DNA of 64,000 nt from Candidatus Bathyarchaeota archaeon (GTDB lineage Archaea; Thermoproteota; Bathyarchaeia; Bathyarchaeales; Bathycorpusculaceae): contig OY970280.1 of the NCBI GenBank assembly GCA_963715865.1, positions 224,001-288,000 of the forward strand, in the 5' to 3' direction. The translations under genes and the position numbers were made by a program. Of the stretch, positions 1,372 to 38,418 are shown piece after piece (the first letter of the stretch is position 1; every line of letters starts with the position of its first letter). Below the pieces are notes generated by a model, which had not been told where the DNA came from, searched no databases, and worked only from the letters and a program-made list of their open reading frames with translations.

Positions 1372-1528
1372 CAACGACTAATCAAAGCTTAGACGACCAT
1401 GCTAATTCAGAAAACTCAATCATAACTACAACAGATAATCGCCAAACAAACACTTGCCGATCAGCTATCTTTATTCGCGTAGGGCAAACAAATGAGAAAA
1501 ACGCGTGCATGATTAGAGATGCTCTATT

Positions 1529-2476
1529 ATGAGAAATAAAGTGGAAAAGCCCAAAACCAAAAAGAAAAAGAATGCTGCCATCTACGCGAGGACGTCCTCG
1601 TTTAGCAAGTTTAGTTACAGCATTAAGGAACAAGTGAGCAGTTGTTGGAAATACTGTGAGGAACGGGGCTGGAACGTAAAATACGTTTTTGTTGACGAAG
1701 GAAAGAGTGGAGAAAATACTGAAAGACCGAAGTTTCAATTCATGCTTGAGCAGGCAAAGCAGGGAGAATTCGATGTGGTCATATCCTGGAAACTCGACCG
1801 CATTTGCCGATCATTAATCGACTTGGTAACTACGGAAAAAAACCTGCGAAAATTAGGGATAGGCCTCTGCAGCGCAACCGAGTACATAGACACAACCACA
1901 TCGCTTGGTCGATTCAATTTCCGAAACTTAGCATCATACTCTGAACTTGAAAGGGAAATAATCGGGGAAAGGTCAAAAATGGGCTTATACGCTCTTGCCA
2001 AGGAACATAAATGGCCAAACGCCAATCCACCATTAGGCTATAACAGAAGCAGCGATGGGTGCCTCCGCCCTAATGCTGCCGAAGTCAACTTAGTAAACAA
2101 AATCATCGGTTTATACGTGAAATCAAAGTCGTTTCCGCACACGGCATTCTTGCTGAACAAACAGGGAATAAAAACCAAGAAAGTTAAGGAATGGAACGCC
2201 CGGGCGGTACGAGACATCGTCACGAACCAACTGTATGTCGGAAGATTCAACGTCGCAGGATTCCAAGACTTCGTAAGAGAGTACAAAATCGTTGACACAA
2301 AACTCTTCAAAAAAGCAAATACGACCCGGACAAGATACACAAAAGGAAAAGCCAAAAGACCACCCATGCCAAAGGACAGAAAAACACTGAAAATAGAGAA
2401 AATCTTCAATCGATACACCGAACTCTTGGAACAGCCAGACCACACAAACGCTCCAACCATAACAATAAAACATTGA
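1529..2476 (+). CDS. Serine recombinase (resolvase plus recombinase domain)
   Basis: Motifs AAIYARTSS, DEGKSG, VISWKLDRICRS and ERE.I.ER, plus PPLGY. Confidence 0.9.
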   Translation: MRNKVEKPKTKKKKNAAIYARTSSFSKFSYSIKEQVSSCWKYCEERGWNVKYVFVDEGKSGENTERPKFQFMLEQAKQGEFDVVISWKLDRICRSLIDLVTTEKNLRKLGIGLCSATEYIDTTTSLGRFNFRNLASYSELEREIIGERSKMGLYALAKEHKWPNANPPLGYNRSSDGCLRPNAAEVNLVNKIIGLYVKSKSFPHTAFLLNKQGIKTKKVKEWNARAVRDIVTNQLYVGRFNVAGFQDFVREYKIVDTKLFKKANTTRTRYTKGKAKRPPMPKDRKTLKIEKIFNRYTELLEQPDHTNAPTITIKH

Positions 2477-2486
2477 GGAAGACCAA

Positions 2487-3338
2487 ATGACTCAACAAAA
2501 AGCGGCGGTGAAAACCACCCTCACAAAACTCATCAAATGCCCTAACTGTGGAAGCAAGCAACTGTCTCAATACGGCAAGAAAATGGTGTGCTCAAACTGC
2601 AGTTTCGTTATAGATCCAAACAGCACCAAAAACAGACCAAGGAAACGCATTAGGCAAAGCAGTCTCCAAATCAGCCAAGAAAATCCCTCAGTTCATTTGG
2701 ATCTTAGCGAAAAAAGCTCTAGAAAATGGCAAAAGTTGCTCAGAGTATCAGACTCAACCGAAGAGAGTTTAGCGACTGTCCTTCTCGAAATCACAAGAAT
2801 CAGCCAATGCATTTCTCTTCCAGAAGAGACGCTGAAACTCTCCCTAGGCGTTTACAAGACAATTATTCAAGCAAACCTGACAAAAAGAACCCCAGCAAAG
2901 GTGCTGGCAGCAACGATTATTTACATCGCGTGCAGACAAACCGGTATTGCACGATCACTAAACGAGATAGCACACATAGCAAACATCAGCGCTGGAAAAA
3001 TGCGACACACCCACAACACTCTAACCAAACAACTAACCTCAATGTCCAGACCAACAACGCCCAGCACGTACGTCAGAAAGCTATCAACCAGCCTCTTCGA
3101 ACAAGAAAAAACCATAGAGGCTGCAGAAAAAATCATGCAGTGCTTAAAAGACCAAAATTTCGTTCAAGGAAAAAATCCCGTCGGCTTAGCCGCTTCCGTC
3201 TGTTACATCGCCTCAATCCTAACTGGAGAAAAGAAAACACAACGAGAAATAGCCGAAATAGCTCGGGTAACCGAGGCAACATTGCGAACCAGGCACAAAC
3301 AGATTGCTAAGAGTCTTCTATTCAAGGTTTCATTTTAA
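2487..3338 (+). CDS. tfb: Transcription initiation factor IIB (TFB) family protein, element-encoded
   Basis: Zn ribbon CPNCG..VCSNC, two cyclin repeats (AATIIYIACR, GKNPVGLAAS) and C-terminal TQREIAEIARVTEATLR. Confidence 0.88.
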   Translation: MTQQKAAVKTTLTKLIKCPNCGSKQLSQYGKKMVCSNCSFVIDPNSTKNRPRKRIRQSSLQISQENPSVHLDLSEKSSRKWQKLLRVSDSTEESLATVLLEITRISQCISLPEETLKLSLGVYKTIIQANLTKRTPAKVLAATIIYIACRQTGIARSLNEIAHIANISAGKMRHTHNTLTKQLTSMSRPTTPSTYVRKLSTSLFEQEKTIEAAEKIMQCLKDQNFVQGKNPVGLAASVCYIASILTGEKKTQREIAEIARVTEATLRTRHKQIAKSLLFKVSF

Positions 3339-3383
3339 TCCGAAAGAATTGTAAAAAAAACAATTATCATTCGACAAGAGTAA

Positions 3384-4985
3384 TTATTTCTTTTCTTCTT
3401 CGCCTTCTATGCCTTCTTTTTTGCAGTTTTCCTTTAGCAAGCGTTCAATATCTGCGTCCTTCAGTTTCTTGCTAGTTCGTCTGAATTTCTTCAGCAGTTT
3501 AACTAGGGCGTGCACTTTTTCGTCACGTTTAAAGAACCATTCTCTGATTTTTTGAAGCTCAGTCATCTTTACAGGGTTGAGGTGGCTTCCATCTCGAGGA
3601 CAGATGTAATCAGAGCCACCGTTGCCCTTCATCACGCCTTTGCAACGTGGACAGAGGACAGCTACATTAGGCAGAAAATCCAATACCTCAGGGCCAAAAG
3701 CTTCCACAAGTTCTTCCAGAGGTTTCTTGCGAGGCGAGTAGTTTGCATATTTTTCTTTGATTATTATTTGCACCTTTTCGAACGTAGCTTCGGTGATGTA
3801 AGCTAAACGAACGTCGGGAACGAACACTTTTCCAAATTTTTTCTCGACAACGTCGCCAGAGAATTGCGGCTTTCCAAAGTAAACAGGGTTCTCCAAAATC
3901 TGTCTAACCTGTTGTCGCGTTAATGGGGTCACCAGAAAATTTCTAAACTGATCATTAACGATACTCGTAACAAGGGCATAGTTTCCATATTTGATGAAGA
4001 GCGTAAATATCTGGCTTATTACAGGATCCCAACCAGGCGTTTTTTCTATCCAATGGCGTTTCTTTTGGTAGCCTATGGGATAGTCAAGATTCCATCGACG
4101 ATGCTGAAAAGCTTGAACTTTGGACCTTAGAGCATAATAGCCCCTGTTGTCATTTTGTTCCTCGGCGCCGAAGGCTTTCGCGGTGGTAATTATAAAATCC
4201 CCAATCTTCTTCAAATCAAGTTCCCCGTTAGGAGTAACGATTACTACACCATAACCCCTGAGCTGCAACAAGAAACCAAGCAGATTAAGTGACTTCCTAC
4301 CGACCCTATCAATTTCCGAAACAATCAATTTATCTATTTTCCCTACTGCGGCTAATGCAAGAATGGTGCTCAGCTTTCTGCCGCTGAAGTCTCTACCGCT
4401 CTTACCTGCATCTACAAGCCAAATGATACGAGCTGCTCCCATTCGCTTAGCCATTGCACGCAGTTCATTTTCCTGTGCCTCAAGGCTATCTCCTTCAACA
4501 GCCTGTCTAACAGTGCTGACTCGCAAGTATGCAACTACCGTGATTCCCGTTCTTGCAATAACTTCTATCCAGTCTATAGCTGGATAGAGAAACAGCAGAA
4601 TATCGTCTTTTCCCTTTCCTTTTCTCTTCTTTGGCTTTTTAGGCTCTTCTTTGTCCTTTTCGTCCTCATTAGAATCACCATTTGGCTCTACATCACGTGT
4701 GGGTTTATTGGAAGTCAGTCCAACGAATAGTACGGAGAACAAAGGTGAAAGAATCGCACTGCTCGATGGTAAAACATGGAAATTTGCAGCAAAAATACCC
4801 GGTAATGCAAACCATGATGCGGCAGATCCAATATAAAGAAGCCCATCGGAGAGGGTGCTTAGATTAACAACTTTTCCATAAGTTTTTAAGGATTTCATGA
4901 TGCGGGTAGGCAAGACCTGCCGCCACATGTTTTTCATATGGACTTTGCGCAAAGTTCTTATTGCATATGGAAGAAAAATGGTCAA
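3384..4985 (-). CDS. Large serine recombinase with Zn ribbon and a long N-terminal extension (true start uncertain)
   Basis: Motifs VVAYLRVST, DAGKSG, VSEIDRVGR, YPIGY, and CPRC..CPRD. Confidence 0.85.
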   Translation of the reverse strand: MTIFLPYAIRTLRKVHMKNMWRQVLPTRIMKSLKTYGKVVNLSTLSDGLLYIGSAASWFALPGIFAANFHVLPSSSAILSPLFSVLFVGLTSNKPTRDVEPNGDSNEDEKDKEEPKKPKKRKGKGKDDILLFLYPAIDWIEVIARTGITVVAYLRVSTVRQAVEGDSLEAQENELRAMAKRMGAARIIWLVDAGKSGRDFSGRKLSTILALAAVGKIDKLIVSEIDRVGRKSLNLLGFLLQLRGYGVVIVTPNGELDLKKIGDFIITTAKAFGAEEQNDNRGYYALRSKVQAFQHRRWNLDYPIGYQKKRHWIEKTPGWDPVISQIFTLFIKYGNYALVTSIVNDQFRNFLVTPLTRQQVRQILENPVYFGKPQFSGDVVEKKFGKVFVPDVRLAYITEATFEKVQIIIKEKYANYSPRKKPLEELVEAFGPEVLDFLPNVAVLCPRCKGVMKGNGGSDYICPRDGSHLNPVKMTELQKIREWFFKRDEKVHALVKLLKKFRRTSKKLKDADIERLLKENCKKEGIEGEEEKK

Positions 4986-5338
4986 TTCTTAATTCTCCTT
5001 GACAACTTTAGCCATACGCCGACTTTCGCGAAAAACTCCGCCTGCTCGAGAAAATCCTGTTCCGTTACAATCACCTCGTATATTGCAGAATCTTTATGGT
5101 AATTGGCGGAAACGAATGTCTTAAGGGGGCGAATGTCAATTGTAGCGTTGTTCTCACAAGTGTTTCGAGGACTGCATGTTTCAGCGATGTCGGCACTCTG
5201 AAGCTTTTGATTTTGGGTTAGCGAAAAAGCTTTGGTTGCACGGGATTTGTCAACTTTTCTCGTTTCTTTAAGCACTTTTGCTGCCGTGGTTATTTCTGAT
5301 GGGTTGATTGTTGGAACTTTGTTCAAATTACTCAGCAA
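4982..5338 (-). CDS. Hypothetical protein
   Basis: 118-aa ORF that overlaps the recombinase start by 4 bp. Confidence 0.6.
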   Translation of the reverse strand: MLSNLNKVPTINPSEITTAAKVLKETRKVDKSRATKAFSLTQNQKLQSADIAETCSPRNTCENNATIDIRPLKTFVSANYHKDSAIYEVIVTEQDFLEQAEFFAKVGVWLKLSRRIKN

Positions 5339-5402
5339 GAATATAACGAAGGGGCGGAAGTGATAAAAAGAATCATGCGCATGTAACTATAGATGATTCC
5401 GA

Positions 5403-5786
5403 ATGAGCTTGGGTGGTAGACCAAAAATAGGAAGTGGCCATGAACCTCTTAATATATCGATAGAATCGGGTATACTTAAAAAACTTGAGAAAGTACCAAA
5501 CAAGTCTGATTTTATCGAGAAATCAATCATTCCACTTCTAAACCAATTAGATCCAGGTCCTTCATGCGCTTTTTTAAATGCCGTTGACAACATAGCCCAG
5601 CAAGAGCTTCATAAGGCAACAATAAAAAAAGACTATGAGAAGATTTCGACGATCGGATCAATGATGGCTTCATGGGGGGACTACCGATTGCTTTGCGTAG
5701 AAAATAGAGCAGAAGGTAATGGTACTTGCCCGCTCCCCAAAAAGTTAGAGGGCCTCAGTACATGTCTAACCGGTTCTAATGAGTAG
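5403..5786 (+). CDS. Hypothetical protein with an RHH-like N-terminus
   Basis: GRPK...NISIESGILKKLEKVPNKSDFIEKSI resembles an RHH fold. Confidence 0.55.
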   Translation: MSLGGRPKIGSGHEPLNISIESGILKKLEKVPNKSDFIEKSIIPLLNQLDPGPSCAFLNAVDNIAQQELHKATIKKDYEKISTIGSMMASWGDYRLLCVENRAEGNGTCPLPKKLEGLSTCLTGSNE

Positions 5787-6077
5787 GCTCATGGCTAAAT
5801 ATATGGTGAGTGTTCTCCTTGGTTAGCTAGCATATGCTATTAATTCCTAACTTCAAGTGCATATGTTCGTTTTGCGCATCCGCAGGTAATGGCAACAAAA
5901 AAAGAAAGCGGTGGCAAGCGGCCACAACGGCAGATAGCTTGGCAGCTGCGCATTGGTACTTTTTTCCTCTTTGGGTGAAAAAATAAGTTTGTTATCATAT
6001 GTTGTCCGTTATCAATATCTTTGACTGATCAGCCCTGCGAAAATTGGAATGAGCTAAGCACGAACGAAGACCTCTGA

Positions 6078-7367
6078 TTAGCCTAAAGGGTTTGAGTTCA
6101 TTCTAATAACAACTTTGTTGTCGGAAAGTTTCGCAACATACTCCCATCCCTTAGCCAGGTAATCATTTGCCTCATCTACTGTGACTACCTTCTGCTTAGC
6201 GCCATTCGTTGTCTGCATGCTTATAGGTTTCTTCCTTAGAATTTCATGAAATTCCTCGTCGCTTAATGCGGGCAAGTCCATCTTTTCGATTTCATTCTGT
6301 TTGAAACCTGCCACCAGTAGAAGTTGTTTTCTGAGGGCCTGAGCCAGCTTTTCCTCGCTTGTTTCCTTGCTCTTTGTGGTTTGTAGATATTCCTGGCTTC
6401 TTTCGTAGGCTTGACGCATGTCAGTGATTACGCTTTCCGGAAGCCTACGCTTGTTAGTAGTGTACCTATTCTCGATGTCGCCCTTGTGGCCCATCCAGAA
6501 CTGCCTGTAATCTCTTAGGACCATACCTTTCGATTCTGCTAGCATCAACTGCGTGTCAAAGTAAGACCTTAAAACGTAGGGTCTCCACCGAAAACCAGCC
6601 TGCCTAATGGCACCTCTCATTATGTCACCTATGTTGATTGTTCTAATGAAAGGCTTTTTTCTCTGCTTAGGCGTAATTATCGGAGAAGCGGAAGTTAGGT
6701 CTTCTCCCTCTCTCATTCTCTCTTCCAAGTAGTCCTTAAGGTACTCGCAGCCTTCCTCGCTGAGAAACGTGAAATACTGGTGTCTCGCCTTGCTGAGCTC
6801 ATTCCGAACAATGACGAGCGCAGGCACATTGGAAAAAGCAACGCTACTGCCTTCAATCTTGAGCTCGGGCAAGTCTCCGATTCTCAAGCCATCTTGGCCC
6901 ATATAATCGCCCAAAGCCTGCAAGCGTAACCCGCTGTGAGCAACAAACACGCACGCTGTTCTGGCCTTTGAGTCACCTGACAGAAATATTCGTTTCAGCT
7001 CGTTGAGCGTTGGGACTCGCTCATCCTTGAGCGTTGGGGTCTCGTCGACTCCTTTGATTTTTATCTTGACTTTTAATTCCCTGTTATTGTGCGCGAGCCA
7101 GGACTTTAGGGCTTTAATTGTTGAACTTATGTAGTTTCCTGCGTAGCCTTTCTTTTCCGCCGCTGAAACGTAGTCCATCAGCATGTTGTCCAATTCACGC
7201 TCTGACAGAGAAGCAAATTCTCTAGGAGTGACTTTGTTTGATTCGCAAAAACTTCCAAGCCGACGCAGACACACATCGGCAGTAATTCTGGAACCTCGCG
7301 CAGTGTTTTCATACCAACGTCTGACATCTGGATCTTCAAACAAATAAGCATACTTCGCGCGTCTCAT
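6078..7367 (-). CDS. Tyrosine recombinase/integrase
   Basis: Catalytic-type motifs HSGLR, YVLRSYF, WMGH and RY; adjacent to the tRNA. Confidence 0.9.
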   Translation of the reverse strand: MRRAKYAYLFEDPDVRRWYENTARGSRITADVCLRRLGSFCESNKVTPREFASLSERELDNMLMDYVSAAEKKGYAGNYISSTIKALKSWLAHNNRELKVKIKIKGVDETPTLKDERVPTLNELKRIFLSGDSKARTACVFVAHSGLRLQALGDYMGQDGLRIGDLPELKIEGSSVAFSNVPALVIVRNELSKARHQYFTFLSEEGCEYLKDYLEERMREGEDLTSASPIITPKQRKKPFIRTINIGDIMRGAIRQAGFRWRPYVLRSYFDTQLMLAESKGMVLRDYRQFWMGHKGDIENRYTTNKRRLPESVITDMRQAYERSQEYLQTTKSKETSEEKLAQALRKQLLLVAGFKQNEIEKMDLPALSDEEFHEILRKKPISMQTTNGAKQKVVTVDEANDYLAKGWEYVAKLSDNKVVIRMNSNPLG

Positions 7368-19887: not shown

Positions 19888-19943
19888 GTTTCCGATTTTC
19901 CCAAGCAGCCTTCAATTCAGCAACAAAGCCTGCTTCATCTTCT

Positions 19944-20080
19944 GCCAAGCGTCATCAAATACGCAGGATTAGAATACATCACGGCTTTAGCGAAAACCGC
20001 CACACAAATCGCTCCTGTGCCGTTATCGATACATCTTGACCATGGAGAAGATTTCGATACAGCCGCGAAATGCGTTAATG
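19944..20080 (+). repeat. 137-bp direct repeat; internal fba fragment (second copy at 30274-30410)
   Basis: GCCAAGCGTCATCAAATAC...TGCGTTAATG matches the fba gene with 5 mismatches by manual alignment. Confidence 0.95.
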
Positions 20081-20241
20081 TTTCAGATTTGTCAGTAATC
20101 GAAAAGTACTCTACTTCTGAATTCGTCTTTGGAATCATTAGTATGGCGAATAAGTCCGAAGACAAATATCACAAGTACCATGGAAGTGAGATACACAAAG
20201 CAGATATTCTCTTCTAATAATAACCTGTTGATTGAACTGAT

Positions 20242-21369
20242 ATGTCTGGCTCGAGCATCGATGAGGTTTACAAGAGATATGAGTTTAACAAGACTGAACC
20301 CGAGACATTGATGGGGCTGGTCAAGCAAGCTATACAAACAGGTGACGGGGTAAAAGATGAACTGAAGAGATTCAGAGAGATCACAGAAAAAGTGGCAAAG
20401 CTTTTGGAGAAGAAGGGGGTCTTCAGAGTCTTGGACCCCTCGAAAATTGAGAACATAGAGTTCTTCCGAAATGTTTGCGCCGTTGGAATAGACGGAAGTC
20501 TTCAACCAATCGAAGGATTTGGCGGTTATTGGTTCGTACCTACAAGCTGTGCGAGAGTAACATTCGAGAAGGGTCCGAACTCCGCTACCAAAGTCGACGT
20601 CACAGCAAATATCGAGAAAATAAAAGAACATGATTACTATGGCGTTGGCGGTGAAGCCGAACTCCGTATGATGAAATCGGAGACAAAGGCGATAATGGAT
20701 TGGGCAGAGCAGCATGATGCTTCTATTAGAAGTATTATGTTTATCGATGGACCAATCGTTGACCCCCCTAGCGTTGTTGACAAAGATTACGTTAAATACA
20801 GGTGCAAAGCACTGGAAAAATGTATCAAGAAGAACATTCTAGTTATTGGATGTGTAAAAAGGATGAAAGCCAGTATATTGTTGGATTTCATTATGAAAAA
20901 CGTTTTCAAAAACGAAACCAACATGGACCTCAAAGAAAGGTTCGCTTGGGACCTTAATTTGGTAACGGCAATATTTACCAAACTCGTTGTTGAAGGAGCT
21001 AAAGGAGTCTTGAGCACTGTCCCAATCTGTGTCAGCGAGACAGATGCGGCACAAAAAGCGTACCGTGATCAAGGTATTATTGTAAATTCCCTTTATATCC
21101 AGAAAGATCCCACAGGTCGACCAATAAGAGTGGACTTCCCAATTCTGAAGAGTTGCGAGGAAAGTATTGAAGCGATAGGGGAAAAAATCATAAGTACCGT
21201 ATACGCATGGTCGTATCCTGGCATGGACATTCCACTGCCAGTTTTCTTGGCTCATAACAAATGTGAAGTCAGAAAAGGATGTGCTGATGTTTTGTACGCC
21301 GAAATAATTACGCGTTCAAAAAGTAAAGACCCATTTGAAAACATATTAAACGAAAAACTGAAGAGGTGA
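20242..21369 (+). CDS. NurA-family nuclease
   Basis: AVGIDGS, FIDGP, GCVKR and PLPVFLAHN motifs. Confidence 0.85.
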   Translation: MSGSSIDEVYKRYEFNKTEPETLMGLVKQAIQTGDGVKDELKRFREITEKVAKLLEKKGVFRVLDPSKIENIEFFRNVCAVGIDGSLQPIEGFGGYWFVPTSCARVTFEKGPNSATKVDVTANIEKIKEHDYYGVGGEAELRMMKSETKAIMDWAEQHDASIRSIMFIDGPIVDPPSVVDKDYVKYRCKALEKCIKKNILVIGCVKRMKASILLDFIMKNVFKNETNMDLKERFAWDLNLVTAIFTKLVVEGAKGVLSTVPICVSETDAAQKAYRDQGIIVNSLYIQKDPTGRPIRVDFPILKSCEESIEAIGEKIISTVYAWSYPGMDIPLPVFLAHNKCEVRKGCADVLYAEIITRSKSKDPFENILNEKLKR

Positions 21370-21374
21370 GTTGA

Positions 21375-23018
21375 TTGGTCAGTAGAAATCCTATAGGTGT
21401 GGTTCTAACAGGGGCAACAACCCAAAAAGCAGCGTGCCAACTTTTCGAATCTTCAGAAAGAGGCGGTGTCAGAGAAGGGAAATTCCTCCTGATTGAAAGC
21501 ATGCCAGGCAAGCGACAAATAATGGTTCGAGTGGCCTCCATCGTTCCTCAAAACGATTTCTACAGTCCAGGCGATGCTTGGACTGAGGCTCGAAGAAAAC
21601 AAGTAGAGATACCTGGCCAACTCGCAAGACAGTACGAAATTTGCGAGCTCGATTTACTTGCTGAGATGCCAGGGGCCAAGCCAATCGTAGTTCCACCTTT
21701 TCCAAATGACAAGATCTACGAAATGAAATTACCAGAAGAGGCTGAGAACGTATTCGGAGTGTCTAACAAGAGTCAAGGGATAATATGGTATGGAACTATG
21801 ACCGGTTATCAAAACGCGCCCATTCCTCTTAATGTCGAAAGCATACCAATGCACATTGGAATTTTTGGAACTACAGGTAGTGGAAAATCATATGATACTG
21901 GAGCTTTGATAGAAAAGCTTGTTACGATCTATGATAAAGAGGACAGAATTCTTTCATTTCCGATTCTTGTAATTGACGCTAACGGCGACTATCTTGATTA
22001 TGTCAAGTTCTTTGAAGATCACGAGAGGTTCGGTGCGGCATCAGCAGTCACGAGGTATGTCTTTCCCGGTTCTCCAGAGCTAAGTAAGATAAATGTAAGG
22101 CCTATAGCCATAGATTTGAATCTCATGTCGAAACGGGAGATAGCTGAAGCTATTAATCTCTACTATTCGGGAGGAGAGAAAACGGAGCTCCAAGTGTCTG
22201 GGTTGGAGAAACTGTTTGCTCATATGGAAGATACATCTCTAATATCGGAGGGAAACTACCAGAGCATCTTTACTGACGATGATAGGTTTGAAGATGCTAA
22301 AGGGGCTCTTGCTAACCTGAGTCTTCATTCCGGAACTGTGGCTGCAGTTCTGCGTGCTCTTGAAAAATTCAAGGAAGTTGAAGACAGTTATAGTCTTCTG
22401 TCAGAGGCGCTAAAGCTTGATAGAAACTTCGTGGATACCCTTACAAAGAATCGTGAAATTGCCATAATAGACTTTTCTGCTGCAGGGGCTCCGGGAGTTG
22501 ATCCCCGACTTAAACAATTCGTGATGTCTTATTTGGCTTCCATTCTTTTTAGGGTATTCACGGAGTACAAGATGGAAGGTCAAGAACGGTATATGCTATT
22601 CATAATAGAGGAGGCTCAGAACTATTGTCCCAATCTTTCGACCTACAACATCGGATATAGTCTTGCTCGCGAGAAACTGGCAGCTATAGCCACGCAGGGC
22701 CGTAAGTTCGGGCTCAGTCTCTGCCTCATTTCCCAAAGACCATCTTTTGTTGATCAGGTCGTTTTGTCAATGTGTAACAGTTTCTTTCTGCACAGAATCT
22801 CGCCAGAGGATGTCTCATTCGTGAAGAGGGTTACAGGAGGCTTACCTTTATCGTTGGAGCGGAGGCTGACTATTCTCGCCAATGGTGAGCTCATAGTGAG
22901 CGGGCAGATGCTGACACTGCCATTTCCAATGCTTATTAAAGTCCCTCCGAGAGAAGTCCCGCAGACTACTGGCAAAACCGACGTTTTAGGTGCTTTGAGG
23001 AGTCTGGCTACAAAATGA
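21375..23018 (+). CDS. HerA-like ATPase/DNA translocase
   Basis: N-terminal HAS-barrel-like region, HIGIFGTTGSGKS, FIIEEAQNY and QGRKFG....ISQRPS. Confidence 0.92.
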   Translation: MVSRNPIGVVLTGATTQKAACQLFESSERGGVREGKFLLIESMPGKRQIMVRVASIVPQNDFYSPGDAWTEARRKQVEIPGQLARQYEICELDLLAEMPGAKPIVVPPFPNDKIYEMKLPEEAENVFGVSNKSQGIIWYGTMTGYQNAPIPLNVESIPMHIGIFGTTGSGKSYDTGALIEKLVTIYDKEDRILSFPILVIDANGDYLDYVKFFEDHERFGAASAVTRYVFPGSPELSKINVRPIAIDLNLMSKREIAEAINLYYSGGEKTELQVSGLEKLFAHMEDTSLISEGNYQSIFTDDDRFEDAKGALANLSLHSGTVAAVLRALEKFKEVEDSYSLLSEALKLDRNFVDTLTKNREIAIIDFSAAGAPGVDPRLKQFVMSYLASILFRVFTEYKMEGQERYMLFIIEEAQNYCPNLSTYNIGYSLAREKLAAIATQGRKFGLSLCLISQRPSFVDQVVLSMCNSFFLHRISPEDVSFVKRVTGGLPLSLERRLTILANGELIVSGQMLTLPFPMLIKVPPREVPQTTGKTDVLGALRSLATK

Positions 23019-26000
23019 GTGAGAAAAGTGATAAAATCGGTTCCATGTATTCCAGACTCCCAACGGGCCCTGGAGTTCCCACCGCAAGTCTCACAGGCTT
23101 TTCGTTCGCGATTATTGAAAGCAGAAAACCTGTGGAGAAACAGCTACGAGATTTCATGACTTTTTGCAGAAGAGATGCGCTATCGGTTAACGTTAAGATT
23201 CTGAAAGCTGAATGGGGCGAAGGAAAAACTGATGCATACGAACGGTATATTCATCCAGAAGCCGAGACGAGCGGAGATGCTTGCTATTTCGCATCGACAT
23301 CAACTATTGCAGATAGAATAAACAGATTTCACGATATTTTCTCAACAACGAGCTATGTCCCAAGCTCAAAATTCCTTGCATCCGTTTTCGTATCGATAAT
23401 TGACGAGGCGACTCATCAAAAGATCGGCGTTAAGGGTTTTCCAAATGTTTTAGATTTCCAGAATGATCCACTAAAATTCATAGAAACAACTCTAGAGAAC
23501 CATCGAAGAATTGGCTGCAAAAAGATATTCGTCTTCATTGACGAATTTGAAGAACTGCTTATTCAAGATAGCAAAGTCCAAAAAGAAATAATTTCAGGGT
23601 TGAAGGAGCTCATTAATGGACAGTTGGGTCTTGTCCATGAAGGCGGGTCTAGTCAGGGAATGCTCCATTTCTTCATAGCTTGTACGCCATATGCGTACAT
23701 TCGAATCATGGAAGACGTCGAGCTTGCCCAGATTACTGGCTCAGTCAAGTCTCGGTTGACAACACTGACCTTACCTGAAGTTACTCATAAAGAGGCGTTG
23801 CAGTTCCTAATAGACTTAACCAGATACAGTTATGGTGACATTCTGCCCGAAGCCTTTCCCTTCCGTAGTCTGGGTCCTTTGAACGGCATATACGCTATTT
23901 CCCACGGTAACCTAAGAGAAATGATCAAACTCTTTGTCAAGCTTATGTCAACTGCGGCAGATGAGAAAACCAAACAGTTTCATCTGATTGATGCAAATCA
24001 CTTTGTGTCATCATTAAGAGATGAGGATATTTCAGTTTATGGAGCCAGCGGAAAAGCCATAGATGATGAGTTACTAGATAAGGTAAATGTTAATCTGAAG
24101 AGAATCAGCAGAGGAGAAGAGTGCTTAGCCGTTTTTAACCTGCTAATGGGTGAATACCAGCCCTTCAACATCGACGAGATGGGCAAAAGATTGGGGCTCC
24201 CGAAAGACGAAATTCATCAACTTGTCTCCGCTGTAAACACGGAACTGCAAAAGATGGGGATAGACAAGGCAATTTCGGCACTTTTTCCTCTTAATGAGGG
24301 AAAGACGTTCGAGACAGTCAAGAATCGACTTCAGATTGTTCAAGACCGTATAATCATCGGAAACGCGAAGATCCCAATTAAGAAATTCAAGGAGAAGCTT
24401 TTTGCCTACACATTTCATGCAGATGGAAAACTTTCAGAGACTCTTCTGCTTCCCAAGGAGCCAAGAGATCTTGAATTGCTGTTTGAGAATATCACCGAAG
24501 AAGAGACCGGAGAACTCACGTCAGAAGAGGCTGAAAAACTGCATCATGCAATAAAGGAAGACTTTGATCAAGCGGCGGCAAAACGGTATTACGTATTATC
24601 TCAAGACATAATTAATCAAGTTTTTCCGTCTCCCTTGTGGTTACTGATGGACTTCGTAAAAGACAGAGCAAAAAGGATGGATCTATGGCGAAAGGCGAGT
24701 AAAGAATATTTTGAGTCTGTCAAGGAATTAAGAACTGGACTGCTAAGTCTAATTGAACATAACGGTATCGGCAAGTTCGAATCGAAAGAGACCAATGGAG
24801 GGAAATACTACAAATTTGATTATGAACTTCAAGACAAGGCAATTCCAATTTCTGCATACGCATATGTTAGCGCTGGCAACATTACTGAACAAGATATTGA
24901 AGAGATACGTGATGACGTGAAGAGCCGTAGACCCAATCTCGTTCTTCTGGTCTACAGTGGTGAAATTGATGCAAATTTGCCAACAGAAATCGGGGGCATC
25001 GAAACACCTATTCTCCAGATTCATTTGAGAAAAATTAGAGCCCTTCAACTAATAGTTGCTCAACTAGCTCGCCCTCTCACGGAAATCGACCCGAAAATCT
25101 TGGAAAAGAGGTTTGCTGAAGTATCCGATGAGGCTGAAATTCAGAAGAGATTCGCTGAGTGGTACAATAAATGCACGAGTGAAGGAATCGTTGTTGATGA
25201 TCCTTACACGAATTACGCTGATAGCGGTGGCAAGCTCGCTGGAATATTAAAATACTACATCAATTTCTTGGGTGAAAGAAAAACATCTTCAGAAGTCTTT
25301 GAAGATTACGAAAAAACTCTTAAGAACATCAAATTCTTCGGTGACAAGGAAGTTCCTTTTGCCCCCGTTGATATAGAAACTACAGGCGAATTTACAAAGT
25401 TCGAGGATGAACTGGTTAGAAACGGCTTTCTATCCAAGCAGAGTGCGGGTACAGTTTGCGTTGAGAATACACCCGTTGAACTGCGGATCACGTCAATTAC
25501 CAAGAGATATCCAAAGGTGGAAGTCAAGCAACTTAAGCAGTTTTTCATAAATGCTGCCCAAGCTGAAAGCGTACTTGAAAGAGTTTACCTTCCGATCTTG
25601 ATTCACAAAGGTGTCCTTACTATTGATGAGGACAACATAATTAAGAAAGAACCACAGCTGCTGCGAAAAGAATTGGAGAACGATTTTGCTACATATGAGG
25701 CAAATGCGAGAAGCAAGTCTAACAGCTGGAAAAGCTTCGCGCATATTTGTGTATCAAAGGGGCGGAAAGAAGAAAAGGGAATGATAATCATTGACCTTAG
25801 CTACGTAGACCAGTTGCTCAGATACAAGAAGAAAGAAATTGACGATGAACATGACGAGAACCTCTTGCTTCAAAAGATTCAACTATTCAAACTTATCATG
25901 AACTATTATTATGAAAAACTGGAACCCAAGATAGACATTGCGATAGCGGCTGCGAGTCAGCTAAAGAGAGAAACACACTCTGAAACAGAATCATTGAAAA

Positions 26001-27298
26001 ACGCGCTGAACAAGGTACTAGAAACCTACAACTCTTATTGTCAAGACAAGACCTATTCTTTGGAAGAGATTGAAGAATACAGCAAAATTTTGGGACACAA
26101 AAAGGACGTGGATGCCACATTTGACCAAACATTTTCCATTGATGAGCTAAATCGATACCGCAACCAAGTTAAGTGGGAGGAATATCATTTCGGTCGAGAC
26201 GCGAGAGAAGCCCACTACTTCAACCTGAAGTTTGCAATGCTTGAGAAATCCCGCCATGAACTGACTAGCGCCATTGGTGCAATCAGCACTGTAATTACAG
26301 AAGCTCAAGATCTGATTTCCAGAACAGAGGAACTAAAAAAGCAAATACACAAAGAATCATCAGTGTACAAGATACCCGCCAACTACAAAATCAGCACGAA
26401 AATTCTTGATGAACTGCATAAATACCATGCTAAACCGGCACACGCTCAGTCAGCATTGCCAAGGATTCGGGTTGGCATGATGAAAGAGTTTTTCAGTTCG
26501 CTCGAGAAGCAGTTGGGTCGAGATCAGTCTCGAGTTCAAGGTGTACTCGAGAAAGCTGAAGAGGTTAGAAAATCTGAGAAAGCCTTTCTTGAAAGCGAAT
26601 TACAGGCGTGCGTAGAAAACGCGCGAAAGTTCTTCCAGATTCCTTACGAAGAAAAATTCAAGAATGTGGAAGATTCGCTGAAATTGGCCACTGAAGAGTA
26701 CACAGAGTTGTGCGCGCAGACCGCAGAGAAATCACTAAAATCCCTTGACGATCTTTACCAGCTAGCTAACTCTGCAGGAAAGAAGTTTAAGGATTCAATA
26801 AACGAAAAAATGATTCAAGCTGAGAATGCTATTGGCCAAGTTTTTGACGAAGCAGAGAGAGGCTTGGAGAAGGTTCGGAACGAAGTTGACAGTTTCGCCA
26901 GAGTTCTCAAAAATGCATTTGGAGAAAAAGTGGCGCCTGTTTGCGAAAAATACGTTGAACATTTTGAAGATGAAATTAGGATCACACAAGGGGCGATACA
27001 AACTGTAAAACAAGGTCATGAGACAGGCTATACCTGGGCTGAGCGACAAAAGGATTTGGGCGAAGTGCGTGAGAAGTTCTTCAAAGATCTAAAACCTATA
27101 ATGCCCCCTCAAGAAGGAGCTATACTCTTGGAGATTGTGCGTATAATAAGTGAAAATCAATCTCAATGGATGAATGTGCAAGATCTTGTCTCCCAGTTAA
27201 AAGTACGACTTAGTAAATCCGACGAGGAAATCGAACAGACCTTAAAGAGACTGGTTGATTTGAATTTGGTAAGAACAGGTGCCTCGTTGCCGATATGA
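23015..27298 (+). CDS. Large P-loop (AAA+-like) ATPase with coiled coil and C-terminal winged helix
   Basis: Walker A AEWGEGKT and Walker B VFIDEFEE; helical C-terminal half; ATGA overlap with herA. Confidence 0.8.
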   Translation: MSEKSDKIGSMYSRLPTGPGVPTASLTGFSFAIIESRKPVEKQLRDFMTFCRRDALSVNVKILKAEWGEGKTDAYERYIHPEAETSGDACYFASTSTIADRINRFHDIFSTTSYVPSSKFLASVFVSIIDEATHQKIGVKGFPNVLDFQNDPLKFIETTLENHRRIGCKKIFVFIDEFEELLIQDSKVQKEIISGLKELINGQLGLVHEGGSSQGMLHFFIACTPYAYIRIMEDVELAQITGSVKSRLTTLTLPEVTHKEALQFLIDLTRYSYGDILPEAFPFRSLGPLNGIYAISHGNLREMIKLFVKLMSTAADEKTKQFHLIDANHFVSSLRDEDISVYGASGKAIDDELLDKVNVNLKRISRGEECLAVFNLLMGEYQPFNIDEMGKRLGLPKDEIHQLVSAVNTELQKMGIDKAISALFPLNEGKTFETVKNRLQIVQDRIIIGNAKIPIKKFKEKLFAYTFHADGKLSETLLLPKEPRDLELLFENITEEETGELTSEEAEKLHHAIKEDFDQAAAKRYYVLSQDIINQVFPSPLWLLMDFVKDRAKRMDLWRKASKEYFESVKELRTGLLSLIEHNGIGKFESKETNGGKYYKFDYELQDKAIPISAYAYVSAGNITEQDIEEIRDDVKSRRPNLVLLVYSGEIDANLPTEIGGIETPILQIHLRKIRALQLIVAQLARPLTEIDPKILEKRFAEVSDEAEIQKRFAEWYNKCTSEGIVVDDPYTNYADSGGKLAGILKYYINFLGERKTSSEVFEDYEKTLKNIKFFGDKEVPFAPVDIETTGEFTKFEDELVRNGFLSKQSAGTVCVENTPVELRITSITKRYPKVEVKQLKQFFINAAQAESVLERVYLPILIHKGVLTIDEDNIIKKEPQLLRKELENDFATYEANARSKSNSWKSFAHICVSKGRKEEKGMIIIDLSYVDQLLRYKKKEIDDEHDENLLLQKIQLFKLIMNYYYEKLEPKIDIAIAAASQLKRETHSETESLKNALNKVLETYNSYCQDKTYSLEEIEEYSKILGHKKDVDATFDQTFSIDELNRYRNQVKWEEYHFGRDAREAHYFNLKFAMLEKSRHELTSAIGAISTVITEAQDLISRTEELKKQIHKESSVYKIPANYKISTKILDELHKYHAKPAHAQSALPRIRVGMMKEFFSSLEKQLGRDQSRVQGVLEKAEEVRKSEKAFLESELQACVENARKFFQIPYEEKFKNVEDSLKLATEEYTELCAQTAEKSLKSLDDLYQLANSAGKKFKDSINEKMIQAENAIGQVFDEAERGLEKVRNEVDSFARVLKNAFGEKVAPVCEKYVEHFEDEIRITQGAIQTVKQGHETGYTWAERQKDLGEVREKFFKDLKPIMPPQEGAILLEIVRIISENQSQWMNVQDLVSQLKVRLSKSDEEIEQTLKRLVDLNLVRTGASLPI

Positions 27299-27448
27299 TT
27301 CATCGACCTCTTTGTGTTTCTTGAATCTTTGGCACAGGGTGTGAATCCGTGTTAGACGAAGGGCAAAGAGATAAGCTTATAGGAACATACTTGGTAATCC
27401 AGGAATAATGTTTCTTGGGTCATAAGGAAAAGTAAAAAGGGGACAAAT

Positions 27449-28225
27449 ATGAATAAAGCAGAGCTTTACGAGGCAATTTCGGCGAGAAAAGGGAATGGCG
27501 TGCAGATAAGACAGGAATTATGCTTTTATGACCCTGAAGATGTCTATAGAGGCTTAACATCCAACAACAAAATAATGAAATGGTTGAAATTCGTTTCAAA
27601 CCATTACTTACCTCCTTCGGACAAGAAAGTGCTTCTAATTTATCCGTGTTCGACCGAAAAACCATATCACGCATCACGATCATACAAGCGCTTGTTCAAG
27701 ACGTTAAATAACCTTGGAGACGAAAGACGGAGAATTCATGTGGTAACAATATCCGAACCGTTTGGTCTTGTACCCGAAGAGTTTTACGGCATAGAGAATC
27801 CGTGGCATGATTGGAAGAATGAATGGTATGACTGCCCGGGTCTCTTTGAATGGTGGTGTAGCAAGTATAAGCAAGCATACTCGCAAGAATTTCTCGACAA
27901 GAGCATAGAATGTCTGTCTGATTATGTTGCTAGATTTCTAACCAAGGTTCAGAAAAACAATTGCTATGAGGAAAAGATTGCATTTGTACGATCTTACACT
28001 GCACAGCTAAAAACCAAAAAAGATCATACTCACCGAAGAATTATTGAGCGGGCTGCTGCAATCTCAGATGTCAAGGTGAAAATCCTTCCCTCCAAAGATT
28101 TGGTATCAAAAATCGTCAGAAGCAATGGAAGTATGGCTTGGGACATGTATGGAGTATCCCATCCTTTGGCTCAAGAGTATCTTCTGAGATACTTGAAGGG
28201 GATCCTACATATTGAAACCAACTGA
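27449..28225 (+). CDS. Stand-alone DUF5591 / archaeosine synthase (ArcS)-like domain protein
   Basis: LLIYPCSTEKPYHASRSY, HVVTISEPFGLVPEE and YD motifs. Confidence 0.75.
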   Translation: MNKAELYEAISARKGNGVQIRQELCFYDPEDVYRGLTSNNKIMKWLKFVSNHYLPPSDKKVLLIYPCSTEKPYHASRSYKRLFKTLNNLGDERRRIHVVTISEPFGLVPEEFYGIENPWHDWKNEWYDCPGLFEWWCSKYKQAYSQEFLDKSIECLSDYVARFLTKVQKNNCYEEKIAFVRSYTAQLKTKKDHTHRRIIERAAAISDVKVKILPSKDLVSKIVRSNGSMAWDMYGVSHPLAQEYLLRYLKGILHIETN

Positions 28226-29237
28226 GACACCATTTCTTTTGCTGAGCCAACTTGTAAACGGTTCTCCAAAGCCATGGAAGCATTTCAAAATAGACGGGCT
28301 AATGGTTAATGCTTACGAAATTCTGCAGAAAAATAAAACTCACGAAACGGTCTGTAGAGAAGGGATTCATGAATATTTAGGATACCATGGGCGCGTAGGA
28401 ATGGACTCTGGTGGATTTCTATTTATGCGAAAGAAATCGTTGGGTGTCCATCCCCAACAAATCTTGGATCTATATGAATCTAGCAAGCCTAATTTGGCAG
28501 TGGTATTGGACCATCCGCTTGAACCTTGCCTATCTATGTCACAGAGAAAGAAGCGCCAACTGAAGACCTTAGAAAACACGATGTATATGCTAAGTTCCAG
28601 AACAAGTGAAAATCCGTTGCTTATGCCAGTTATTCATGGGTATTCTTTGCAGACAGTGAGATGGTACATAAGGGCACTTGCCAAAATAGGCGATTTTGAA
28701 ACGTATGGAATTGGAAGTCTGGTACCATCGGTATTTAATGCCAAGGGGATTGGAGGCATCTACAACGTTTTGAGAATTGTCTCCTATGTCAGAAAACTTC
28801 TCCCAAATAAGAAAATCCATGTCTTTGGAATTGGGAGTACATTAACAATGCATTTGATGTTTTATGTTGGTGCAAATTCCGTCGACAGCTCCGGTTGGAG
28901 AACAAAAGCAGCGTTCGGCGCTATTCAACTTCCTGGTATCGGTGACAGATACATAACCACGAGAGAAAGAAAAAAGAACTACAGGGATCTTTCTGAGGCT
29001 GATAAGGAGATTTTGGCTCAATGCCGTTGCCCTGTGTGTGAGAAAAAAGGATTGGAAAAACTGAGGACAAGCTTTGAGGATAGAGCCTTGCATAACTCGT
29101 GGGTTTTTCAGAAGGAAATCGAGAAAATTCGATTATTAACGAGAGAGGAGGCATATGAGAGTTATGTTGAGGAAGTTCTCACAAAGTCTTCCTTCTGTAG
29201 AGCCTTTGCTTTTGCCAAGCAAATCAAGAATTCCTAG
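28212..29237 (+). CDS. Queuine/archaeosine tRNA-guanine transglycosylase (TGT)-fold enzyme without PUA domain
   Basis: MDSGGF, VLDHP, IGSLVP, HVFG, SVDSSGW and the Zn site CRCPVC...HN. Confidence 0.88.
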   Translation: MKPTETPFLLLSQLVNGSPKPWKHFKIDGLMVNAYEILQKNKTHETVCREGIHEYLGYHGRVGMDSGGFLFMRKKSLGVHPQQILDLYESSKPNLAVVLDHPLEPCLSMSQRKKRQLKTLENTMYMLSSRTSENPLLMPVIHGYSLQTVRWYIRALAKIGDFETYGIGSLVPSVFNAKGIGGIYNVLRIVSYVRKLLPNKKIHVFGIGSTLTMHLMFYVGANSVDSSGWRTKAAFGAIQLPGIGDRYITTRERKKNYRDLSEADKEILAQCRCPVCEKKGLEKLRTSFEDRALHNSWVFQKEIEKIRLLTREEAYESYVEEVLTKSSFCRAFAFAKQIKNS

Positions 29238-29243
29238 AAATTT

Positions 29244-29648
29244 TCATTGCAGTATTTTCACCAATAATGAAGGGATAACATCTTTGAAAACAGAACCACC
29301 GACAACAAAAAAAGTCTTGGACTTAACTAAATTCTTGAAAGTATGTTGCCACGCTCTACGTGGAGTTTCAGTCAGCACTATAAGAGCAACAGCCTTGTTT
29401 TGCAATACATAATCTACTCCTCTTCGTTCCCATTTCTCATAGGAGTTACTCGTAAGGTTATGACCCAGTTCGGACTCTATCAGCAGCCCTCTTTCATTTG
29501 CTGGATTGATGATGTAGATGTCAGGACCGGTTTTGTGCTCTCTCGCTAAGTTGATTTCTTTTATTATATAGCCCAGCGACTCCGCCACGGCATAAGTATA
29601 ATCTAACGAGAAGTCATGAAGCGTTTGATGAGTATACGTATCGCTCAT
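29244..29648 (-). CDS. Small PD-(D/E)XK-like protein
   Basis: GPDIYI...LLIESE; convergent with the tgt-like gene. Confidence 0.5.
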   Translation of the reverse strand: MSDTYTHQTLHDFSLDYTYAVAESLGYIIKEINLAREHKTGPDIYIINPANERGLLIESELGHNLTSNSYEKWERRGVDYVLQNKAVALIVLTETPRRAWQHTFKNLVKSKTFFVVGGSVFKDVIPSLLVKILQ

Positions 29649-29698
29649 ATCTAATTTATATTGCGTTGTAGCTTTAAGTGGTTTCCCTTGATTAAATG

Positions 29699-29974
29699 TT
29701 AATCAATGGCTGAACTATTTTGTCGATCCTGCGAACCTTCATGTGGAAAACTATAGGCCCTTGGTAATTCAACTATGAGAACGATTTTCTCTGAAAATGT
29801 TGCTTCGTCCTCTGCCAAGCGTTTTTTAACTTGCCTCCAAACCGCTGGGCAATCCGTGTAATCTGAACCTATAATGCTGCGAATGACATTGTCAACTTCT
29901 TTTCTGTTTTGGCGTGTTACCTCTATTCCTGCTTTCTTAAAAGTCGCTTCAAGATGACGGAAATAACAAGTCAC
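29699..29974 (-). CDS. Hypothetical small protein, possibly with a foreign C-terminal tail
   Basis: MTCYFRHL...CPAVWRQVKKR reads as a compact protein, and the tail runs into the island end. Confidence 0.6.
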   Translation of the reverse strand: MTCYFRHLEATFKKAGIEVTRQNRKEVDNVIRSIIGSDYTDCPAVWRQVKKRLAEDEATFSEKIVLIVELPRAYSFPHEGSQDRQNSSAID

Positions 29975-30127
29975 AGCGCTTCACCAAAAAACATCATAGT
30001 TACAGCACTTAGTAAATTTATTGATGCAGGTTGCTTGCTCGTTTGAGAAGTATTAAATAGTAATAATAATCGTATATTTTGGTATCATGTTATTGTCTAA
30101 CGTTTAAAATGGAGTGGAAAAAACAAA

Positions 30128-31045
30128 GTGCTTGTAACAAACAAGGATTTAATGGTTCCAGCCAGAAAAAACGGTTACGCCGTTGCAGCATTCAACATCC
30201 AAAACATGGAAAGCATGAAAGCCGTTGTGGAAGCAGCAACCGAAGAAAAATCCCCAGCCATCATGCAAATAACGCCAAGCGTCATCAAATACGCAGGATT
30301 AGAATACATCACGACTTTAGCGAAAACCGCCACACAAATCGCTCCTGTGCCAATAGCGATACATCTTGACCACGGAGAAGATTTCGATACAGCCGCGAAA
30401 TGCGTTAATGCCGGGTTTAGTTCAGTGATGATTGATGGCTCGTTTTTAAGTTTCAACGAAAACGTCGCTGTCACTAAACGAGTAGTAGATGTTGCTCATC
30501 CAAAGGGCGTTTCTGTTGAAGCTGAACTGGGCAAACTTGCGGGTGTCGAAGAACGCAGCGTGGAAGAAAGAGAAGCCATACTAACTGACCCGCAAAGTGC
30601 AGTAGAATTCGTGGAGAAAACCGGCGTTGACACACTTGCCGTAGCAATCGGCACATCGCATGGGGCTTACAAGTTTAAAAGCCAAGCAAAAATAGACCTT
30701 GAACGCTTAAAAATCATCAGCCAAAAAATCAGCATCCCACTTGTACTGCACGGCGCATCAAGCGTGCCTGCATGGATAGTTGAGAAAGCAGTCAAATACG
30801 GGGCAACACTAGATGGAGCAAAAGGCGTATCAGAAGACCAATTGCAACAAGCGATTAAGCTGGGCATTGCAAAAATCAACATTGACACTGACTTGCGCTT
30901 AGCCTTCACCGCAACAGTACGCGAAGTCTTAACCAACTCGCCAAAGGAATTTGACCCAAGAAAAATCCTTGGTCCAGCAAAAGACGCTATGAAAGAAGTG
31001 GCTAAGGGCAAAATGCGCCTGTTCGGAAGTTCAGGAAAAGCCTAA
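30128..31045 (+). CDS. fba: Class II fructose-1,6-bisphosphate aldolase
   Basis: HLDHG, SVMIDGS, EAELG, GTSHGAYK, LVLHGAS and KINIDT motifs. Confidence 0.95.
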   Translation: MLVTNKDLMVPARKNGYAVAAFNIQNMESMKAVVEAATEEKSPAIMQITPSVIKYAGLEYITTLAKTATQIAPVPIAIHLDHGEDFDTAAKCVNAGFSSVMIDGSFLSFNENVAVTKRVVDVAHPKGVSVEAELGKLAGVEERSVEEREAILTDPQSAVEFVEKTGVDTLAVAIGTSHGAYKFKSQAKIDLERLKIISQKISIPLVLHGASSVPAWIVEKAVKYGATLDGAKGVSEDQLQQAIKLGIAKINIDTDLRLAFTATVREVLTNSPKEFDPRKILGPAKDAMKEVAKGKMRLFGSSGKA

Positions 31046-32151: not shown

Positions 32152-32484
32152 ATGAATACTGAAAGCAGTCTCAAGGAAATTGAGAGCATGCAAAGGTCAC
32201 TGGAAAATTTAAGGCAGGAGCTTCAAATCTTGAAGCCTACGCTTAAGAAACGCTTTAAAGTTGAAACCATAGACATTTTCGGCTCGTATGCCCGTGGAGA
32301 ACAGACAGAAAAAAGCGACTTGGACCTCCTCGTAACGTGGTCTATTCCAGAAGACTTATTCTTGATATACGATTTACGGCAGTACCTAAAAAGAAAACTC
32401 CATTTGAAAGTGGATATTATAGCTAAAGAATTCCTCAATAAACATATAAAAGAACAGGTAATAGAGGAAGCTGTTCCAGTGTGA
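32152..32484 (+). CDS. Minimal nucleotidyltransferase (MNT) antitoxin
   Basis: FGSYARGEQTEKSDLD matches GSx10DxD. Confidence 0.9.
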   Translation: MNTESSLKEIESMQRSLENLRQELQILKPTLKKRFKVETIDIFGSYARGEQTEKSDLDLLVTWSIPEDLFLIYDLRQYLKRKLHLKVDIIAKEFLNKHIKEQVIEEAVPV

Positions 32485-32849
32485 AGAGAGATCATCTAGA
32501 AAGAGACCCCAAACTCTACTTATCAGAAATCACAGAGTTTATCCAAAGGATTAAAGAATACACCCAAGGGATGACCTACGAGGATTTCCTTAAAAACAGA
32601 CAGACAATTGACGCTGTAGATACAAACGTGCGAAATATAGGTGAGGCAGTTCGTGTCCTCTCAAAAAACAGACAAATCCGCAATCTATTTTACCACTACC
32701 ACATCCCATTCAAAAAACTCTCGGGCATGAGAACAGACCTTACCCACGAATATTTTGCCATGAGCACTAGGGCATTGTGGATTACTGCTACACGCGACTT
32801 AATCAACCTCAAGCTTCAATTCGAAAAAGTCTTACAAGAACTGCAATAA
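32481..32849 (+). CDS. HEPN/DUF86 RNase toxin (HepT-like)
   Basis: YL..I...I, IGEA and R-TDLT-H (Rx4H); overlaps MNT by 4 bp. Confidence 0.88.
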   Translation: MKRDHLERDPKLYLSEITEFIQRIKEYTQGMTYEDFLKNRQTIDAVDTNVRNIGEAVRVLSKNRQIRNLFYHYHIPFKKLSGMRTDLTHEYFAMSTRALWITATRDLINLKLQFEKVLQELQ

Positions 32850-38118: not shown

Positions 38119-38418
38119 ATGAAGACGTTAGAGGAAATAAAGGCTCAGTTAGAAGAGCTTAAGCCAATTCTTAAAGAAAGGTTTCAAGTGGAAACCATAG
38201 GGGTATTCGGATCTTATTCCCGTGAAGAACAGAAGAAGAAAAGTGACGTAGACATTCTCGTTACTTTTGTTGAGCCAAATGATATTGACCTTTTGGATTT
38301 CATTGAAATTAAGCAGTTCTTAAGACGAAAACTGAATACGAAAGTTGACTTGGTAACGAAGAACGCCTTAAAGCCCAGAATTAGAGATAAAATTCTTCAA
38401 GAGACGATTTACGTTTGA
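38119..38418 (+). CDS. MNT nucleotidyltransferase antitoxin (orphaned)
   Basis: FGSYSREEQKKKSDVD motif. Confidence 0.9.
   Translation: MKTLEEIKAQLEELKPILKERFQVETIGVFGSYSREEQKKKSDVDILVTFVEPNDIDLLDFIEIKQFLRRKLNTKVDLVTKNALKPRIRDKILQETIYV

Follow-up and report, generated by a model that had tools for sequence, protein, structure and literature searches.

The window analysed here is a stretch of 64,000 nucleotides from a member of the Bathyarchaeia, and near its middle lie two overlapping genes related to those of archaeosine synthesis. The question that this locus raises is what these two enzymes modify, in a genome that has another transglycosylase for its tRNA. The features of the locus are as follows.

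19931..19952, no strand: left 22-bp direct repeat, at the junction with the 3' half of a split 74-aa ORF
19944..20080, + strand: 137-bp copy (96%) of part of an aldolase gene (30274-30410), at the left end of the insertion
20242..21369, + strand: NurA-family nuclease, 375 aa, conserved acidic residues D84, E147 and D169
21375..23018, + strand: HerA-type DNA translocase, 547 aa (DUF87 E 4e-25; PADLOC HerA E 5e-35)
23015..27298, + strand: 1427-aa ATPase, N-terminal Orc1/Cdc6-type AAA+, C-terminal helical/coiled region (from motifs and fold)
27449..28225, + strand: ArcS2-like protein, stand-alone DUF5591 / ArcS C1 core, 258 aa (from Pfam and hhalign)
28212..29237, + strand: DpdA-like guanine transglycosylase (TGT), 341 aa, TTG start (from Pfam, alignment and model)
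29244..29648, - strand: PD-(D/E)XK-like ORF, 134 aa, within the insertion, accessory (PDDEXK cluster matches 0.92-0.93)
29801..29822, no strand: right 22-bp direct repeat, at the junction with the 5' half of the split ORF

An earlier note, which had described a 258-aa ORF with DUF5591 only beside a 341-aa TGT ORF, is borne out by the coordinates and by Pfam. The two ORFs overlap by 14 bp, and DUF5591 (E 8e-14) and TGT (E 1.6e-21) are their sole matches above the Pfam cut-offs. In an alignment of 50 homologues the three catalytic Asp of the TGT (D65 in DSGGF, D100, and D225 in VDSS), H142 and the Zn ligands C271, C273 and H294 are invariant, confirming that both Asp motifs and the Zn site are kept; C276 is conserved in at least 90%, and Val171-Pro172, a preQ0-type pocket, is invariant or nearly so. 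The His for Gln previously seen in VIHG is H142, which aligns with Gln169 of P. horikoshii ArcTGT. The reported lack of a C-terminal PUA is found in Pfam, with no PUA match, and in the predicted structure (pLDDT 90), which is the barrel alone: it matches the ArcTGT barrel with Z 34.0 and an rmsd of 2.6 Å over 317 residues and stops where that barrel stops. In the DUF5591 protein, all of the ArcS motif PC-x3-KPY-x2-S-x2-H is kept except the last His, replaced by Tyr79, and this Tyr is conserved in the DUF5591 subclade. Its predicted substrate is preQ0 in DNA, whose nitrile it would convert.

A 150-bp gap upstream of the DUF5591 gene and a CTTATA at 27376 are both present, as had been noted, and the pair had been thought to have its own promoter on this basis. 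A separate promoter is not supported. A CTTATA-like hexamer arises in 28% of shuffled gaps, which is chance level, and it is not conserved, the corresponding gap being at most 26 bp in eight orthologous cassettes and the closest homologue having CTTAAA at the site. The sigma-70 promoter scan is inapplicable to archaea.

The host genome (2.35 Mb, one contig, 98% complete) encodes a separate 541-aa housekeeping TgtA. This, together with the recent insertion of the locus described below, upholds the view that the pair stands outside housekeeping archaeosine synthesis; for the TGT, the case in which these would be the sole archaeosine genes of the genome does not arise. Of the separate tgtA and arcS genes that had been suggested as a check, a tgtA is present and a canonical ArcS was not detected. 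Nor were QueC, QueD, RaSEA, QueF, Vut_1 or type I FolE found in the host genome. QueT is present, and the lack of QueC, QueD and RaSEA makes the precursor supply dependent on uptake. No enzyme leading from preQ0 to archaeosine was found for the housekeeping TgtA, so the host lineage may stop at preQ0 or use another enzyme for this step. The C-terminus of TgtA is a DUF5591-like domain without the Cys, and no protein of the genome other than the DUF5591 protein studied here carries the ArcS Cys motif.

The housekeeping TgtA is itself without PUA, and its PUA part is a separate ORF elsewhere in the genome (the two lie at about 1151.4-1153.1 kb and 1898.0-1898.5 kb). The loss of PUA was therefore rejected as a marker of a DNA substrate and the earlier argument from it to a non-tRNA substrate fails, split ArcTGTs being known as well (PMC11298593). 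An own tRNA TGT is also present in all 16 other genomes that have a TGT of this clade, and canonical ArcS in 6 of these hosts.

The phylogeny that the earlier note had called for was conducted with quick LG+G4 trees. The ArcTGT and bacterial TGT rows, 30 in number, group as a single clade and all carry Gln; the window TGT falls outside, among His-bearing proteins, and shares its His with STSV2 DpdA and DpdA1. Grouping it with ArcTGT is rejected (AU p 0.00032). The same test does not reject grouping it with STSV2 DpdA (AU p 0.43), although such a clade was not recovered with support and the branches are long. A His is present at the pocket of Salmonella DpdA (His181; PMC10164549), and a conserved His of DpdA has been noted (PMC6884629). 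The bacterial DpdA rows sampled carry Gln, and so the His is not universal in DpdA and is not diagnostic alone.

Judged from sequence, the nearest characterised relatives of the pair are DpdA and ArcS2 of the Sulfolobus STSV viruses, of which it appears to be a cellular variant. The best phage matches of the TGT are DpdA of STSV1, STSV2 and STSV4, at about 30% identity; the only phage matches of the DUF5591 protein are STSV1 and STSV4, and it aligns with STSV2 ArcS2 at an hhalign probability of 99.3% (E 3e-20). In these viruses and in Vibrio phage nt-1, a transglycosylase without PUA is likewise adjacent to and overlapping a DUF5591-only gene (10.1101/2023.04.13.536721), and the pocket His and the PC-x3-KPY motif are common to both. 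The window pair differs in being cellular and coupled to NurA, HerA and the ATPase. Unlike STSV2 DpdA, its TGT has retained the Zn site, and its ArcS2 is 70 aa longer than the viral one, with Tyr for His. DpdA2 and ArcS2 of phage nt-1 generate dG+ in DNA, nt-1 ArcS2 being active although its motif is also degenerate, and dCDG is present in STSV2 DNA (10.1101/2023.04.13.536721). The earlier note had missed that such DNA-acting pairs were already known from viruses (10.1101/2023.04.13.536721).

It had also missed the conserved cassette of which the pair is one module, in the order NurA, HerA, ATPase, ArcS2, TGT. The NurA has acidic residues conserved in the family and is itself below Pfam detection; 7 of 8 cassette orthologues have a NurA Pfam match, the best with E 1e-12. 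The cassette HerA is distinct from the other HerA-like genes of the genome. The ATPase, unnamed by searches of Pfam, PADLOC, NCBIfam and PDB sequences, has the Walker A motif GEGKT and the Walker B motif FIDEFEE. Its structure was modelled up to residue 1000 and analysed mainly up to residue ~540; the model matches ORC2 with Z 14.3 and BrxC with Z 12.7 (rmsd 6.3 Å, 353 residues). The PDDEXK matches of the 134-aa ORF are Atlas feature hits and a lead only, and no relative of this ORF was found in the other cassette loci.

The cassette is a recent insertion of 9.85 kb (block 19953-29800) that lies between the direct repeats (pair D12, 91%) and splits the 74-aa ORF, as is evident from the congener G041, which has the ORF intact, no cassette, and flanks 93-98% identical. 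A search of 40 relatives did not turn up the TGT, and of 401 genomes of the class this one alone yielded the ATPase. At the left junction (window 19931-20080; 29801-30410) the split ORF meets the aldolase fragment through a shared 9-bp word, and the junction looks like a 610-bp duplication that later lost its middle. This suggests entry by a single crossover rather than by an integrase; none was found within the insertion block. Elsewhere in the window, putative serine-recombinase-like, TFIIB-like and tyrosine-integrase-like ORFs (237-7367) suggest a mobile element, and resolvase and TFIIB genes directly adjoin the cassette of another locus (L110). There are also putative nucleotidyltransferase and HEPN-like (DUF86-type) genes resembling a toxin-antitoxin system (32152-32849 and 38119-38418).

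All five genes occur together in 10 GTDB loci, with different flanks each time, from Bathyarchaeia, Korarchaeota, Nitrosopumilus, Thermoplasmata, Hydrothermarchaeum, Archaeoglobales and one bacterial bin. Over all loci seen, the cassette takes at least 5 gene orders. The ATPase belongs to a family of at least 126 members. NurA and HerA are present in 6 of 8 loci selected by the ATPase, all 6 of which have the TGT; the other two contain distant ATPase relatives without NurA-HerA. In loci selected by the TGT, 6 of 16 are without the nuclease module. The loci are not independent samples, and these figures are counts with no statistic attached. QueC, QueT or Vut_1 genes flank several cassettes, and some have Cas1, Mrr or toxin-antitoxin genes as defence-island neighbours. 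A cassette 81% identical to that of the window is sited between Cas1 and QueC. Four genes were compared between the two cassettes, and in each of them most codon changes are synonymous; 11% and 21% of codons differ in the pair, against 49% and 56% in NurA and the ATPase. That the pair is so much more alike suggests that modules may be exchanged between cassettes. Two cassettes carry an STSV2-clade DpdA instead of the window-type TGT, one of them with an ATPase 55% identical to that of the window.

The pair is probably the self-marking module of a defence cassette resembling restriction-modification, in which a 7-deazaguanine in self DNA would protect it against a NurA-HerA restriction module. 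DNA would be the likeliest of the different substrates, DNA or a foreign RNA, that had been proposed earlier, although the argument from PUA and the separate promoter offered with that proposal did not stand. PreQ0 or a related 7-deazaguanine would be imported, here by QueT, as QueC and QueD were not found. From its conserved catalytic residues and its kinship, the TGT would swap selected guanines of double-stranded DNA for the 7-deazaguanine, as DpdA does. By the precedent of viral ArcS2, the DUF5591 protein with its Cys motif would turn the 7-nitrile into dG+ or a hydrolysis product (dADG, dCDG). The final base could be dG+, dCDG or dADG or, as no RaSEA was found, possibly a lysine adduct. 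The Orc/BrxC-like ATPase would find unmarked sites and recruit HerA-NurA, which would translocate along the unmarked DNA and degrade it.

This reading is drawn from the separate housekeeping TGT in this and 16 of 16 other hosts, the empty site in the congener, and a His-type TGT for which the ArcTGT clade is rejected and the STSV2 DpdA clade is not. It is also drawn from the linkage with NurA-HerA-ATPase kept through at least 5 gene orders, the two cassettes that use STSV2-clade DpdA instead, the precursor genes that flank several cassettes, and the pattern of essentiality in S. islandicus described below. Other findings count against it. By structure and HMM score the TGT is nearer to ArcTGT than to bacterial DpdA. 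His-type TGTs adjoin EF-2 in some genomes, and the bacterial DpdA sampled have Gln. The His of the ArcS motif is Tyr, and the genome yielded no QueC, QueD or RaSEA. Finally, the S. islandicus cassette is distant (TGT 27%), and essentiality fits an antitoxin as well.

In S. islandicus M.16.4, transposon insertions number one in M164_0019 (TGT) and zero in M164_0018 (DUF5591), which are essential, whereas HerA (24), the ATPase (17), a 229-aa ORF (9) and NurA (19) are non-essential (PMC6249222). S. solfataricus also has the cassette, and for S. acidocaldarius the Tn-seq table lists no orthologue. A Saccharolobus shibatae locus has the same six gene lengths, and its TGT cluster includes S. islandicus proteins; this Saccharolobus locus is stable across species. 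Against the window, its TGT is 27%, its DUF5591 protein 28%, its HerA 34% and its NurA 25% identical, and its ATPase is weakly matched. The S. islandicus cassette is a divergent homologue, a distant subtype in which homology of the ATPase is barely detectable. Polarity is unlikely to account for the essentiality of the pair, whose genes stand upstream of the dispensable ones. A modification that guards against a linked nuclease should give this pattern, which an antitoxin role would fit too.

A rival reading is control at the level of protein, in which the TGT and the DUF5591 protein bind or modify a cassette protein and so restrain a NurA-HerA-ATPase toxin, with no mark on DNA. The Tn-seq pattern fits any antitoxin role, and there is a precedent in the deazaguanylation by Cap9/Cap10 of type IV CBASS, where the TGT-fold Cap10 is reported to bind a modified protein (10.1101/2025.04.06.647259). 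However, all base-exchange residues are invariant in the window TGT, which matches PADLOC DpdA with E 2e-14 and the CBASS TGT model with E 0.004, and the insertion has neither a CD-NTase nor a QueC-like Cap9; no QueC or cyclase is found in the window cassette. In the viruses, moreover, the pair stands by itself and dCDG is present in STSV2 DNA, and there are other loci that have the pair but no nuclease module. Protein-level control is unlikely on this evidence.

Modification-dependent attack, in which the TGT recognises or excises the 7-deazaguanines of viruses and HerA-NurA loads at the lesions, is more doubtful still. The pocket should, from its residues, bind 7-deazaguanines, archaeal viruses carry them, and the host lacks de novo preQ0 genes; but neither the essentiality of the pair in S. 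islandicus, nor the flanking precursor genes (QueC, QueT, Vut_1), nor the presence of ArcS2 would be explained. There is similarly little to be said for a DNA mark with a non-immune purpose, namely repair, recombination or the maintenance of a mobile element by addiction. Housekeeping HerA-NurA resects DNA ends, the locus is stable across Saccharolobus species, and recombinase or prophage genes adjoin some cassettes. Against this, a second NurA is encoded elsewhere in the genome, the cassette is without Mre11 and Rad50, and its distribution is patchy, with Cas1, Mrr and toxin-antitoxin neighbours. Addiction and defence are compatible roles. Finally, a second or substitute archaeosine pathway at tRNA G15 or on other RNA is likewise improbable even though the only ArcS-Cys-motif protein of the genome is in the cassette, canonical ArcS, RaSEA and QueF were not found in the host, PUA is reportedly dispensable for tRNA modification (a work cited in PMC11298593) and the best structural match of the TGT is ArcTGT, since the whole cassette is absent from the congener, the pair is present even in hosts whose TgtA and ArcS are complete, the tree rejects kinship with ArcTGT, and the linkage to DNA-processing genes would be left unexplained. 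ArcS2 might have a side activity on tRNA-preQ0.

The self-marking reading sets the cassette beside several known systems. With housekeeping ArcTGT and ArcS, acting at tRNA G15, it shares the barrel, the catalytic Asp, the Zn site, the Val-Pro preQ0 pocket and a homologous ArcS C1 core. It differs in the Gln to His change and the separate clade of its TGT, and in being mobile, rare and without C-terminal domains. Its scores fall far short of the family cut-offs, with 95.9 bits for the TGT under TIGR00432, where 350 are required, and 53 bits where 440 are required. Bacterial Dpd (dpdA-K; PMC10164549) is alike in three respects: a TGT paralogue of the DNA type whose catalytic triad and His are the same, a further enzyme that works on the nitrile, and a predicted restriction module. 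In contrast, none of the six cassette proteins matches PADLOC DpdB, DpdC or DpdD-K, the TGT scores 53 bits where the bDpdA equivalog cut-off is 200, and ArcS2 with NurA, HerA and the Orc-like ATPase is present instead. The cassette would work like Dpd but is not a member of it. BREX-related capture (BRC; PMC12839542) likewise combines a HerA/FtsK translocase, an Orc/Cdc6-type BrxC-like ATPase and a TGT, which is proposed to mark self DNA (PMC12839542). Unlike BRC, the bounded insertion has no PglZ, BrxA/DUF4007, second STAND NTPase or GNAT, and NurA and ArcS2 go unmentioned in the BRC paper (PMC12839542). A HerA/FtsK capture paper mentions neither NurA nor TGT.

A description of the cassette was not found in the literature searched, from which subscription journals are largely missing; there, 7-deazaguanine DNA marks belong to bacterial Dpd islands and viruses, not to archaeal chromosomes. 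The balance of evidence leans towards a widespread archaeal restriction-modification system with an archaeosine-type or carboxy 7-deazaguanine self mark, restriction by an Orc/BrxC-like ATPase with HerA-NurA, swapped marking modules, and capture or mimicry by STSV viruses. If so, a 7-deazaguanine serves archaea as an epigenetic mark of self, and HerA-NurA, a repair machine, has been made over into a restriction enzyme. This would explain two essential S. islandicus genes of unclear function, M164_0018 and M164_0019, and provide a source for the STSV2 DpdA-ArcS2 pair, whose modification was called puzzling. The system is testable in Saccharolobus, which is a genetic model.

In the STSV host species S. 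tengchongensis (CP146016; L118:9001-10444), the TGT and DUF5591 protein are 71% and 65% identical to STSV2 DpdA and ArcS2 (L067), and the pair sits within a HerA-ATPase-NurA cassette. These identities suggest that the STSV viruses may have captured a host pair for mimicry of the mark.

Other arrangements were seen among the loci. In two, DUF6884 follows the ATPase in the usual place of DUF5591 (L114:13192-13686 and L115:13276-13764) and may be an alternative second enzyme; as an ArcS2 homologue it is unsupported (hhalign probability 3.5%). Ignicoccus islandicus (L108:9001-13167) has a lone distant ATPase homologue, with no NurA, HerA or TGT within 9 kb. A separate clade of 337-aa His-type TGTs without PUA, each followed by a metallophosphoesterase-like gene (L026-L030), has EF-2 and ribosomal protein genes adjoining in two loci. 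Related His-type TGTs are found on haloarchaeal plasmids (L071:8860-11929), where that of Halomicrobium precedes an annotated BREX ATP-binding protein gene, with a restriction endonuclease and a second large TGT fusion nearby. An Aulosira plasmid (L070:647-8984) may hold a further variant linked to a nuclease, its His-type TGT being preceded by an exonuclease gene and a 1041-aa ORF.
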